From a virus (lineage: Duplodnaviria; Caudoviricetes), in the IMG/VR virus record IMGVR_UViG_3300021957_000133, positions 1-35,966 of that record: a DNA stretch of 35,966 nucleotides, one strand, 5' to 3'. The notes beneath the pieces are model-generated. The model worked only from the letters and a program-made list of their open reading frames with translations, ran no database searches and was not told the DNA's origin. A program made the translations under genes and the position numbers. This document shows, in pieces, positions 9,843 through 35,201 of the stretch (the stretch's first letter is position 1; every line of letters starts with the position of its first letter).

Positions 9843-9917
9843 TCCGGAGTAGCTCAGCGGTAGAGCGGGGGACTGTTAATCCTTAGGTCGTAGGTTCGAA
9901 CCCTACCTCCGGAGCCA
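9843..9917 (+). tRNA. tRNA-Asn (GTT), CCA encoded
   Basis: Acceptor TCCGGAG/CTCCGGA, D arm GCTC-AGCGGTA-GAGC, anticodon loop CT-GTT-AA (9873-9879), T arm GTAGG-TTCGAAC-CCTAC, discriminator G plus CCA. Confidence 0.96.
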
Positions 9918-9962: not shown

Positions 9963-10682
9963 ATGCTAAAAACTATTATATTAACAACGTTGGCTGCAGT
10001 AGGCTTTGCTTCTGCAGATATTACCGTACCACCTATTGAGGTGTTTTCTACTTATAGAGACACAGATGTCTGGCGTGGTGCTAAATTTGGAGATAGTGAT
10101 AAAGTAACAGGTATTGCTACTGGTTATGATTTTGACTTCGCGCGTTTGGAAGCTTCTTTCTCCTATGCTGATAACTCTGAGCTTAATAACACTAATCTTT
10201 CAGTTGGATTTAGTCGTGATTTCTCTTTAGAAAGTGTTGGTGAGTTCTCCGCTGGAGTCGCTTATAAACGTTATACCGGAGGAACTGATCTTGCAGGTGA
10301 TGTCACTAGTGAGATTGGGGTTTCTCTTGCTAAGGAGCTTTTTGATACTAATATTACAGGTACACAATACCTTACTACAGAAGGTAATGGATTGGGCTAC
10401 TTTGAGCTCAATGCTACCCGATCTATTAACCCATTCCCATATGTGCTTGACAATCAAGTCTTTGTCGATGTGAGTGCTACAGTAGGTTATAGCTTTGATG
10501 AGTCAGAGTTTACCCACACTCAACTATCTCTTAGTAAAGGTTATGATCTAGACTACTTTGGTGGAGTTACACTCACCCCGTTTGTTACGTTTGTAAATGC
10601 TGCATCTGATACAGCTGGTACTATTTATGCTGGAGCAGATAATGAAACTCTTACAGGTGTCTCCTTTAGGAAGTTCTTTTAA
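9963..10682 (+). CDS. Outer-membrane beta-barrel / putative porin
   Basis: Sec signal peptide ending FASA, alternating amphipathic strands, N-terminal Y..TDVWRG (like the YxFRG motif of TorF-type putative porins), C-terminal Phe (SFRKFF). Confidence 0.8.
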   Translation: MLKTIILTTLAAVGFASADITVPPIEVFSTYRDTDVWRGAKFGDSDKVTGIATGYDFDFARLEASFSYADNSELNNTNLSVGFSRDFSLESVGEFSAGVAYKRYTGGTDLAGDVTSEIGVSLAKELFDTNITGTQYLTTEGNGLGYFELNATRSINPFPYVLDNQVFVDVSATVGYSFDESEFTHTQLSLSKGYDLDYFGGVTLTPFVTFVNAASDTAGTIYAGADNETLTGVSFRKFF

Positions 10683-31804: not shown

Positions 31805-32329
31805 ATGGCTAAATCGAACAAATTCACAACTCTTTTAGAGTCTTACATGAAACGCTACGAGCGTGGGGGTTTTCTCGTAGGAGATGTATTCAAGTTTAAT
31901 GATAACTTTAAAAGCGATGATGCATATAAAGATCTTGCTGATAATGTCAAAGAGAATATTGACTCGATGATTGATTCAGGACTTCATATTCGTGTTATTA
32001 ATATTAAAGACACTTCACCTGCAAGGTATCCTGCATCTGATCAAACATCCTCACTCGATGTTGTACTTGATATTGCACTTGATACAGGTGGCGGTCGTTA
32101 CACAGATCAATGCTCTATTCCTTGTTGTCTTGGTAGTTGTGAGCAATATGCTCCTAATTTACTTCCTATTCCAGATGGGCAGCGCCGTAAGAGTAAAGTC
32201 ACTATTAAGCCTGAAGAGGTTGATGAGAGTGAAGAGAATCCAGCTAACTATACTGATAGGGGAGATGGTAAGCTTACTCTCACAGGATTATCTCTTAAGA
32301 AAGAAAGCTACACTCAACAGTATCTTTAA
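31805..32329 (+). CDS. Hypothetical late protein, 174 aa
   Basis: ORF with TAAATA box; N-terminus KFTTLLE. Confidence 0.75.
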   Translation: MAKSNKFTTLLESYMKRYERGGFLVGDVFKFNDNFKSDDAYKDLADNVKENIDSMIDSGLHIRVINIKDTSPARYPASDQTSSLDVVLDIALDTGGGRYTDQCSIPCCLGSCEQYAPNLLPIPDGQRRKSKVTIKPEEVDESEENPANYTDRGDGKLTLTGLSLKKESYTQQYL

Positions 32330-32475
32330 TGGCATATACAATAGTTGATACTACTAACCTACCTTTAACAGCAGGAGGTGAGGCACCTCCATTTAAGATA
32401 TTAGACTCTTCTGATCAATGGGTATTTTCCACCTGTACAGAAGAGGAAGCACAGGAGTGGATTGACGAACAATAA
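32329..32475 (+). CDS. Small acidic protein, 48 aa (not in ORF track)
   Basis: MAYTIVDTTNLPLTAGGEAPPFKILDSSDQWVFSTCTEEEAQEWIDEQ; TAATG coupling at both ends. Confidence 0.7.
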   Translation: MAYTIVDTTNLPLTAGGEAPPFKILDSSDQWVFSTCTEEEAQEWIDEQ

Positions 32476-32639
32476 TGCCTAAAGAAGTTGCTACAACGAA
32501 GTGGTGCCCTGTTTGTCATAGTTCGCAAAAGATAAAGGGGTTTCGCTCGTTCTATTGTTACGATTGTTGGAAAGCAGCCGGAAAGCCTAAAATAGAGCCA
32601 TTATTTAAGGCAATGGATAAAGCTAAAGGTAAGAAGTAA
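32475..32639 (+). CDS. Small basic Zn-finger protein, 54 aa (not in ORF track)
   Basis: MPKEVATTKWCPVCHSSQKIKGFRSFYCYDCWKAAGKPK...; CxxC-x13-CxxC; abuts the convergent gene exactly. Confidence 0.7.
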   Translation: MPKEVATTKWCPVCHSSQKIKGFRSFYCYDCWKAAGKPKIEPLFKAMDKAKGKK

Positions 32640-32897
32640 TTACTTCTTTTTCTTCCAGCTCTTTCTAGCTGGACCCCTCTTCTTGTATTTCTTGTTTTTA
32701 ATCTTCTTACAAGCTGCATGAGTTGGTCTACAAGCCGGGTATGAAGCGCCTTTTTTTCCAGCCTTCTTACGTCCGCAAGGACCACCAGTCTTGCAGTTTA
32801 CCCAACCTTTAAACTTCTTACCAGTCTTCTTATCGGTACGAGTCTTGAACCAATCTCTTAGGTTCTCACTCAATTGTAACGTCTCTTGTTGAGTCAT
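32640..32897 (-). CDS. Very basic Cys-containing small protein, 85 aa
   Basis: ENLRDWF...GWVNCKTGGPCGR...YPACRP; coupled to the upstream gene. Confidence 0.75.
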   Translation of the reverse strand: MTQQETLQLSENLRDWFKTRTDKKTGKKFKGWVNCKTGGPCGRKKAGKKGASYPACRPTHAACKKIKNKKYKKRGPARKSWKKKK

Positions 32898-33790
32898 TAC
32901 TTAATCTTACCTCCACGGTTTACACATTTCTGAACATATCCAGAAGCATAAGCAGAAGGCCATACGTCATACTTACGCTTTGCTTTAGCTTGACATTTTG
33001 CACGAGTCTTTGAGACTTTCTTTTCTGCATCTTCCTCACCCTCAGACTTCTTCCTACCTCCTTTCATATTGGCACACCAGTGATACATCTTACCTTTCTC
33101 TCCACCGTACTTCTTAGCCATCTTACGAAGTTTTGTCACTGAACCCTTACAACTAGCACCAGAACGCTTAACTCGTCCTGGGCTGCTCTCCGCATCTTCT
33201 TGATATGAACCCTTAACAAATTTAATACCTTTCTTTAATTGACCATCTGTTGCGAAGTTAGCAACCTCCAATGCAGACTTACCAGCTAACTTAGCAGTAC
33301 CTAATGCAGCCTTACCAGCTAACTTTAACGCCCCCATACCAACCTTCTTGGCAGTCTCGTTATCTTCCACCTGATCCATTGGTACTATATCTAACTCTAA
33401 CCCTTCGAGAGGTATCCTTCTTGTTTGACCATTCGCAGCTGTAACTGTTAGATTTTGATCATCATGAGCAAGATAATATAATGTTTCACCATTATAAACT
33501 ATTGGATATCCTAAATCTTCTTCTACCTCATTTTTAAGATCTGCGATATTGTTAATAATAGCTTTAACCTCTTCAGGGTCCATATCTTTTTTAATTGAAA
33601 TAGGCTTTGTTAGTTTAACCTTACCATCAGAACCTCTTTTAAACTCATCCAATAAAGCACCTACGCCTGCTGTTGCTTTAGGAGCTATATCTTTAGCTAC
33701 TGCACCTGCTACCCCTTTAGCTACATCAAACAAACCTTCTTCTACGATATACTCGTTAAGCACTTTTTTATATAGCTCGTCAAACTGCAT
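32897..33790 (-). CDS. Modular late protein (start ATG 33790), acidic N-terminal half and two basic Cys modules
   Basis: TATAAATA 5 nt upstream; modules GASCKGS...YHWCANMKGG and AKCQAKAKRKYDVWPSAYASGYVQKC. Confidence 0.75.
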   Translation of the reverse strand: MQFDELYKKVLNEYIVEEGLFDVAKGVAGAVAKDIAPKATAGVGALLDEFKRGSDGKVKLTKPISIKKDMDPEEVKAIINNIADLKNEVEEDLGYPIVYNGETLYYLAHDDQNLTVTAANGQTRRIPLEGLELDIVPMDQVEDNETAKKVGMGALKLAGKAALGTAKLAGKSALEVANFATDGQLKKGIKFVKGSYQEDAESSPGRVKRSGASCKGSVTKLRKMAKKYGGEKGKMYHWCANMKGGRKKSEGEEDAEKKVSKTRAKCQAKAKRKYDVWPSAYASGYVQKCVNRGGKIK

Positions 33791-33795
33791 ATGTA

Positions 33796-33851
33796 TATTT
33801 ATATTAAAGAGAGCGAAATTCCCTTTATTTTTAGTACCTTTGATATAAATA
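33796..33851. promoter_or_regulatory. Divergent pair of perfect TATAAATA late promoters
   Basis: Minus 33796-33803 and plus 33844-33851, each exactly 5 nt before an ATG. Confidence 0.8.
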
Positions 33852-33856
33852 CTAAT

Positions 33857-34285
33857 ATGGCTAAACACAATACCAATTTTGGAAAAGATTTAAAAAATCT
33901 TTCAGATCTGGCGTTCTCGGTCCTTAATGAGAATACCAATGAAGTTATTAATGGCGGAGCTGCTTATAAGGGTGGTGATATCGACCACGATTGAGCGTCT
34001 CATATTAAAGCTCCTCCGTTTGGGGAGTCAATTAAGAAGATCCTTCACCACAATCTTACTGAGGAAGGTATTGTTGAAGAATATTACGTAGAGCACAACG
34101 GCAAACTCGTTGGCCTTTTAGCTGAAGATGTTGAGGTTATCCGTGAAGAAGGTCATCCTCCAGCGAAATCATCAGATGAGGAAGATGATGATGATGAAAA
34201 GAAAGAGCATGAAGGTGAAGAAGACGAAGAAAGCACAGCCCATGGTGCACGTCCTAAACTTATCGGAGTACCTATCCTTAGGTAA
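33857..34285 (+). CDS. Putative selenoprotein, 142 aa, in-frame TGA at codon 46 (33992-33994)
   Basis: 45 codons, TGA, then 96 sense codons in the same frame with no ATG/GTG/TTG; SECIS-like hairpin just downstream; fills the gap to the clamp loader gene. Confidence 0.7.
34005..34035 (+). promoter_or_regulatory. Bacterial SECIS-like stem-loop
   Basis: GCUCC-U(bulge)-CC [GUUU] GG-GGAGU at 34010-34028 with optional lower UUAA/UUAA stem; 23 nt between UGA and the G-initiated apical loop. Confidence 0.6.
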
Positions 34286-35201
34286 TAGCTTTCTCAAGTG
34301 ATACTAGACATGCAAATGCATTAATCTCTTTATCTACTATAAAAGCACTCTTATAGAGATGATCGGCAATTATGACGATCATCTCTTTCTTTTTCATATC
34401 AGGTAAATCTTGCTCATATAGAAAGTCGAGGAAGTTAGCTAATAGAGTGTCGTAATCACCTTGAAACCTATCCTCATTCTCAATAAGATACTTACGTAAT
34501 CCTAGAGAGTTAGTCCTAACACCTTGCATAACTTTAGCCAATAGCTCGTTATCACTAGCATTAGAGTCAATACATAGCTCACCATCTACAATAGACTTTT
34601 GAATCTCATTGATAGTCTTACGAAGATCAGGGAAATGCTTCTTAACTAAGATAACAAACTTCTTCTTCTGCTCTTCACTTACCTTTACATTCTCTAGTCT
34701 AAGGATATTAAAGCATCGCTTAGCAGCTTGATCTACAACCGGTTTAAGGTCTAATGACTGACATCTGGATTGAAGAGCAGGAATAATCTTATGCTTATAG
34801 TTAGCAGTAAGAATAAACCTACAATACTTAGCATACGTCTCCATAGTATTACGAAGAGCAGCTTGAGCTTGAGGAGTTAATCCATCCGCCTCATCGAGGA
34901 TAACTACTTTGATACCACCATCGAATGATTTAGTTTGAGCAAAGTTAGTAATATTATGACGAATGACATCAATACCAGATTCATCAGAAGCATTAATGTA
35001 TAAGAAGTTACATCCAAGTATATCATTAACAATAATCCTAGCAAGAGTAGTCTTACCTGTACCAGGGCTTCCAACAAACAACAAGTTAGGAATCTCATCC
35101 TCAAATTGCTTAACAACACGTAAAGACTTATCATCTAAGATAAGATCATCTAGCTTATGAGGACGATACTTCTCTACCCAAATCTTATCGAAATCAACCA
35201 T
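34278..35201 (-). CDS. gp44: T4 gp44-like / RFC small-subunit clamp loader AAA+ ATPase
   Basis: WVEKYRP, GSPGTGKTT, INASDE, ILDEADG, SRC, PDLRK motifs. Confidence 0.93.
   Translation of the reverse strand: MVDFDKIWVEKYRPHKLDDLILDDKSLRVVKQFEDEIPNLLFVGSPGTGKTTLARIIVNDILGCNFLYINASDESGIDVIRHNITNFAQTKSFDGGIKVVILDEADGLTPQAQAALRNTMETYAKYCRFILTANYKHKIIPALQSRCQSLDLKPVVDQAAKRCFNILRLENVKVSEEQKKKFVILVKKHFPDLRKTINEIQKSIVDGELCIDSNASDNELLAKVMQGVRTNSLGLRKYLIENEDRFQGDYDTLLANFLDFLYEQDLPDMKKKEMIVIIADHLYKSAFIVDKEINAFACLVSLEKAIT

Follow-up and report, generated by a model that had tools for sequence, protein, structure and literature searches.

Introduction

The SECIS element of the E. coli fdhF type carries a bulged U in its upper stem. 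Bacterial selenoprotein genes with bacterial SECIS (bSECIS) elements combine an in-frame UGA, a hairpin with a G[GU] loop at a distance of 16-37 nt, homologues with cysteine (Cys) in place of selenocysteine (Sec), and the use of UGA as a stop as well. In the available part of a May 2026 catalogue of prokaryotic selenoproteins (PMC13188914), the bSECIS model is given as a loop of 3-9 nt, a stem of 4-16 bp, a G in the first two loop positions, a spacing of 16-37 nt and a minimum free energy (MFE) of -7.5 kcal/mol or lower. The words phage, virus and viral do not occur in that part of the catalogue. The viral selenoproteins found in print, as far as the source was available, are captured eukaryotic peroxidases of poxviruses, namely a GPx1-like protein of molluscum contagiosum virus and a GPx4-like protein of fowlpox virus (PMC8310308). 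No phage selenoprotein was found by title or start of abstract in the literature searched, whose coverage mostly excluded subscription journals and bioRxiv supplements.

This study is concerned with a gene in a 35,966-nt stretch of DNA (IMG/VR record IMGVR_UViG_3300021957_000133), referred to here as the window. The gene shares with the bacterial selenoprotein genes all four of the traits listed above. However, it is carried by a phage, its hairpin has no bulged U, and Sec machinery is absent from the contig parts searched. As with the poxvirus genes, its product would be a virus-encoded Sec protein that relies on host machinery. The poxvirus proteins described in the available part of that source are captured host glutathione peroxidases with a eukaryotic SECIS element, whereas the phage gene has a bacterial-type element and a domain that was found here only in phage sequences. 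The homologous domain of cyanophages (PSSM7_192, S-ShM2, S-RIM14, P-HM1/2 and S-H38; PHROG 11470, 22379 and 764) has the same predicted fold and the pattern H-x-C-A...H...G...Y-x-V, but it has a Cys codon, usually lacks the hairpin, and often occurs in tandem or within long proteins. In phages with stop codons reassigned genome-wide (TAG or TGA), so far as the sources seen describe them, an in-frame stop is also read as sense. In contrast, one UGA per contig is recoded here and the other UGAs terminate.

Results

Gene layout

The window is part of the genome of a myovirus-like marine phage, the record being 17% complete, and has genes for the baseplate wedge and the clamp loader. An earlier note, made from the letters of this DNA, described an open reading frame of 45 codons, a TGA, 96 further sense codons and a TAA, and the frame was found to be as described (Table 1). 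Also, no ATG, GTG or TTG follows the TGA in frame. The region would otherwise be a gap, as the note had pointed out: table-11 ORFs of at least 60 aa span 95% of the window and leave the read-through region uncovered. Eight TGA read-through candidates occur in the window, and only the gene at 33857 is both uncovered and without an early ATG. Another in-frame ATG at 33791 precedes the promoter and is missing from L002-L004.

Table 1. Features of the gene and its surroundings in the window.
Feature	Position	Strand	Remark
Octamer TATAAATA, taken to be a T4-type late promoter	33844..33851	+	5 nt upstream of ATG
Second TATAAATA, divergent	33796..33803	-	precedes neighbour gene 33790-32897
N-terminal 45 codons from ATG 33857: variable leader, then KGGDIDHD	33857..33991	+	the product if UGA terminates
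In-frame TGA, codon 46, putative selenocysteine	33992..33994	+	
SECIS-like hairpin, +16 to +34	34010..34028	+	apical loop CGUUU 34017-34021
Core domain (residues 37-104) with the predicted fold of a five-strand SH3-like barrel	33965..34168	+	alignments, model, fold searches
Acidic linker of low complexity, then the C-terminal HGARPKL motif conserved in the window clade	34169..34285	+	stop TAA 34283-34285

The octamer ahead of the gene is presumably a late promoter of the T4 type. A similar A/T-AAATA box stands ahead of the start codon in relatives of the window clade, and the transcript from the box at 33844 would be leaderless or nearly so. Boxes of this kind lie 5-7 nt ahead of the ATG, without a Shine-Dalgarno sequence, at late genes of the window (for example those starting at 33857, 33790, 9181 and 9963), which suggests that its late mRNAs are leaderless.

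The codon at the site in relatives

The TGA is present in 25 of the 25 IMG/VR loci that cover the site (26 related loci, 14 distinct contexts), and three more distant loci (39-47% identity) likewise have TGA. Since L001 equals the window sequence over 551 nt, it is not independent; related sequences enter all the counts given here, and thus the counts do not represent independent events. In viral contigs, a pattern that left the last letter of the codon open (TGN) gave 34 TGA, 7 TGT, 1 TGC and no TGG among 42 matches. A looser pattern gave at least 119 metagenome loci, from about half of the collection scanned, and 8 genome loci; the raw codons, chance matches included, were 112 TGA, 14 Cys and 1 TGG. 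When 239 H-x-TGN-A candidates were scored by a profile built from nothing but the residues that follow the pattern, 194 TGA, 15 TGT, 1 TGC and no TGG stood above the cut-off of 8 bits (redundant loci), and the lone TGG candidate fell below it. The ratio of TGA to Cys in these scans is not a census, because contigs are repeated in the counts and the patterns are biased to the TGA family. Alignment A6, in which the row of L196 had wrong coordinates, did not enter the counts. A pattern scan of GTDB gave eight matches, seven of which were judged to be chance; the remaining one is a homologue, L217.

The TGA is retained in two phage lineages, in which the primases are only 24% identical (L217 of the second lineage against the window). 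The earlier note had held that relatives keeping both the TGA and the hairpin would support a selenoprotein, and such relatives were found down to about 30-40% identity.

Cysteine homologues

In a phmmer search over 1.84 billion proteins, with a query that carried C at the UGA position, the Cys homologues P0058, P0059 and P0064 were identified (E 1.6e-5 to 9.5e-4). P0059 matches the three PHROGs named above and 31 records, nearly all cyanophages, including PSSM7_192 of P-SSM7 (HDCASKV). Proteins with HDCA.H, which the earlier note had expected in marine T4-like phages, do exist in cyanophages, and their homology is seen in profile searches as well as in the predicted fold. PSSM7_192 is labelled "possible cytitidyltransferase"; the cytidyltransferase name belongs to a neighbouring or fused region. 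By alignment, TGN scans and fold search, the same column of the homologues holds either UGA or Cys. In a tree with the site masked, which rests on only 69 columns, 35 rows with TGA or W are separated by one branch from 11 rows with Cys (support 99/98). This is consistent with a single switch between Cys and TGA, the direction of which is set by the choice of root. The Cys-type L128, L167, L085 and P0059 have two tandem copies of the domain. In L124, with a Cys codon, a strong GUUU-loop hairpin (407-445, -10.7 kcal/mol) lies at the SECIS position and may be a relic, a precursor or chance.

The domain differs by name or motif from the families of Table 1 in PMC13188914, in the part available, and matches no NCBIfam or Pfam family. 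The full protein gave no Pfam or PHROG match and the core only weak PHROG matches; there was no NCBIfam match of note and no sequence match to solved structures, and a tblastn search of 50,697 annotated phages with the core found nothing. In addition, four motifs of the family had no match in four supplements of the GOS 2008 selenoprotein study (PMC2398784), and the GOS_A and GOS_B sequences shown in the available part of it are unrelated to the family.

The hairpin downstream of the UGA

The earlier note had proposed a SECIS element of the fdhF type. A hairpin is indeed found 3' of the UGA; it starts at +16 and has 7 bp, a CGUUU loop, a spacing of 22 nt and -8.5 kcal/mol, all within the four criteria of the bSECIS model as we implemented them from the available part of PMC13188914 (our own implementation and not bSECISearch). 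This match has low weight, since criteria i-iii are passed by 14 of 14 Cys controls as well as by 54 of 54 TGA contexts; -7.5 kcal/mol is reached by 23 of 54 TGA contexts versus 5 of 14 Cys contexts. The bulged U was not borne out. Its register needs a C at +23, but only two of the 7 distinct hairpins of the window type have one, and the bulge is missing from the MFE fold of the window hairpin. Taken alone, the window hairpin is without statistical significance: its 76-nt fold has a z of -1.13, and 29 of 200 shuffles are equally stable. The significance of the hairpin comes from its conservation and not from the stability of a single sequence.

This conservation is seen in several ways. First, the GC-rich hairpin codons are unusual in the window, as the note had remarked (CCG is 11% of Pro codons and GGG 6% of Gly codons), and in relatives CCG is fixed in 35 of 35 Pro codons and GGG in 37 of 37. 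A second type of hairpin has CCA, AGT and TTG, each fixed in 57 of 57. Second, pS at hairpin codons +6 to +11 is 0 versus 0.59, 0.34 and 0.57 in the flanks (38 window-type sequences, approximate counting). Third, 64 of 65 distinct TGA contexts have a GU-loop hairpin, where synonymous recoding predicts 5.3; for the Cys contexts the numbers are 4 of 14 observed and 1.4 expected. Under strict criteria, which were tuned after inspection of the TGA group, a hairpin stands behind 44 of 44 internal TGAs, whereas among the 42 terminal TGAs of these genes that could be tested just one has it; the background is 14 of the 1,334 TGA triplets of the window, and 2 of 14 Cys homologues have a hairpin at +21-23. 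The conserved core consists of four pairs, +19 to +22 with +28 to +31, and the outer pairs are not conserved. Covariation is slight: across 30 distinct hairpin strings, both sides of a pair changed once, and one side alone changed in a few cases.

Site-specific recoding of this UGA, as judged from sequence, is strongly conserved and real in marine phages. The gene probably encodes a 142-residue phage selenoprotein, to which we give a probability of about 85%, and an equally high one to residue 46 being Sec inserted via SelB.

Other readings of the UGA

Among the alternatives, programmed leaky read-through survives best, at a low probability. By this reading the hairpin would delay termination so that a near-cognate tRNA could deliver Cys or Trp, independently of SelB and with an outcome like that of the Qbeta coat. 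A conserved UGA with a hairpin is expected from leaky read-through as well as from Sec insertion, but the loop G[GU] and the spacing of 21-23 nt are fixed in 54 of 54 TGA contexts, and a fixed loop sequence at a fixed distance is as expected for an element recognised by a protein. Many of the hairpins are weak (-3.6 to -5.3 kcal/mol), which fits read-through. Insertion of Cys would fit the Cys homologues. Against leaky read-through in general, the UGA stands on an invariant Cys column and not between domains, TGG is absent from homologous sites, and the part translated ahead of the UGA varies and is short, at 21-132 aa. The searches for Sec machinery, which gave none in the window and four related contigs, count on the side of leaky read-through. 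The earlier note had stated that the window holds no selA, selB, selC or selD; for selB and tRNA-Sec (selC), the two that the search of this 17% complete record covered, the statement stands. In the four related contigs no tRNA-Sec or selD was over the cut-off, these records and that of the window being 17-46% complete.

A second alternative is that UGA is always read as Trp (table 4) or Gly (table 25) in the phage or its host. This was suggested by database protein homologues that show Trp at the UGA column, in entries where the underlying codons are not visible. Several such public entries (P0046, P0052, P0002 and others) have UGA read as Trp and are fused to downstream genes. For example, P0002 is the window protein except for W46 and one further residue, and P0046 has a further W at the point where the near-identical L191 has its terminal TGA, and from there runs on into ribosomal protein S21. 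Because of this fusion, and because the tree has its four W entries among TGA loci, the W entries are best explained as table-4 gene-caller readings on short contigs. The earlier note had named Trp in homologues as a finding that would speak against Sec; in DNA no TGG was found at homologous sites, and W is confined to protein-database entries. Of the findings that the note had listed as speaking against its reading, those within reach of this analysis did not turn up. The note had also argued that the code is not changed genome-wide, and this is well supported: TGA terminates 6 of 37 window genes, all 78 Trp codons among the 11,517 codons of the window are TGG, and 44 of 102 distinct genes of the family themselves end in TGA, mostly in an ATGA overlap with the next start. 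Also, table-11 ORFs span 92-97% of the sequence in the window and in four related contigs, and neither the window nor any of these contigs has a convincing TGA read-through besides this gene. Reassignment of UGA is thus largely refuted on sequence grounds and is very improbable.

A nonsense mutation, a pseudogene or an assembly error, which a single stop in an intact frame would look like in one genome, is refuted, with a negligible probability, by the TGA being kept in two distant lineages, by four of four independent DNA runs with no alternative letter at 33992-4, and by purifying selection downstream of the TGA (pN/pS about 0.08 at codons +14 to +44 in 38 window-type sequences, by approximate counting). 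RNA-library contigs cross the TGA unchanged in three of four runs and leave 33600-33847 uncovered; these runs were chosen for containing the stretch and may include DNA.

Predicted fold and candidate metal site

Residues H44, U/C46, A47, H65, G71, Y76 and V78 are invariant in alignment A5, and a further His lies near residue 100. A structure model from 37 sequences has five strands and a pLDDT of 87; an earlier model from 10 sequences (pLDDT 61) was set aside. The best BFVD matches of the model are mostly the same cyanophage Cys proteins (TM 0.70-0.75), and the top rows of the fold search are NusG, KOW, SH3 and Tudor domains (Z up to 4.7). H44 and U46 are in the first predicted strand, H65 is near the end of the second, and the His near residue 100 is in the final one. 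This placement makes a metal site plausible, and His44, Sec46, His65 and His~100 are, somewhat more probably than not according to the model, its ligands. A CxxU redox pair is absent from the protein.

Phage lineages and hosts

G001-G003 are related to the window phage, with replication proteins mostly 55-85% identical and late boxes near the start codon. The second lineage has mostly Shine-Dalgarno-like sites and short MKT[FY]...KKKKK proteins. In L056-L191 of this lineage, N-termini of the MK[TS][FY]xE[FY] type and ATGA overlaps are common to the Sec genes and their downstream neighbours, and the Sec proteins end in Lys runs. The start MKT[FY]xE[FM], which we take to resemble the T4 capsid-targeting sequence, is common in the second lineage and in neighbouring genes and is absent from the window protein. 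In G004, of the second lineage, S21, IscU-like and IscA-like genes lie at 37204-40998 (L248, L249).

There are weak hints of a host of the window clade among Verrucomicrobiota or Planctomycetota. The DUF1549/DUF1553 and DUF1501 genes near the Sec gene of G001 (32133-35094, L235) have a top cluster that is mostly Planctomycetota. The window has a porin-like (TorF/Gcw_chp-like) gene at 9963-10682 (+), behind a late box and a tRNA-Asn (9843-9917), with many viral look-alikes; its best bacterial look-alike cluster is mostly Verrucomicrobiota. G001 also encodes a P-II nitrogen regulator (67270-67647, L237). L217 lies in a contig of the Flavobacteriaceae MAG NAT163 among primase, ThyX-like and other phage-type genes, and tRNA-Sec and selD were not over the cut-off in this MAG. 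Because of this gene context and the lack of tRNA-Sec and selD over the cut-off, the MAG was rejected as a host and the contig is probably mis-binned.

Discussion

If residue 46 is Sec, the late transcript would carry UGA46 and, by analogy with established bacterial Sec biology, host SelB would bind the GU-loop hairpin 22 nt downstream and bring Sec-tRNA to the UGA. The pairing of SelB with its SECIS element can be specific to a species. The predicted small SH3-like barrel may then bind a metal through the Sec and the histidines. With too little selenium, or too little of the host's Sec machinery, the 45-residue stub would be made instead.

T4 internal proteins have a capsid-targeting signal, as described in the available part of PMC3012670. 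The phage genes are similar in having a late box at the window gene and a shared N-terminal start in the second lineage, but the window protein is without this start. The presumed late expression and the second-lineage N-terminal motif suggest, by analogy, that the protein could be packaged in the head and delivered at infection like T4 internal proteins; we put this forward tentatively. A wider proposal is more doubtful still: that this is a phage-only selenoprotein family, which arose once, from a metal-binding module with Cys in T4-like phages, and has since spread to two or more marine myovirus lineages that are distant from each other and differ in host, that virion-packed selenium is carried to the next cell, and that the single UGA ties the full-length product to host selenium supply and SelB.

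Judged from its sequence, the gene very probably brings a chemistry that is already known into a carrier of a new kind and into a new protein family. If this is true, bacteriophages evolve and retain Sec genes of their own with bacterial SECIS elements, and a systematic annotation error is exposed, in which genes are cut at UGA or read with Trp. The 68-residue domain, which has cultured Cys counterparts, is easily testable. The gene would also mark uncultured marine hosts as users of Sec, and viral infection would be linked to the use of selenium in the ocean.
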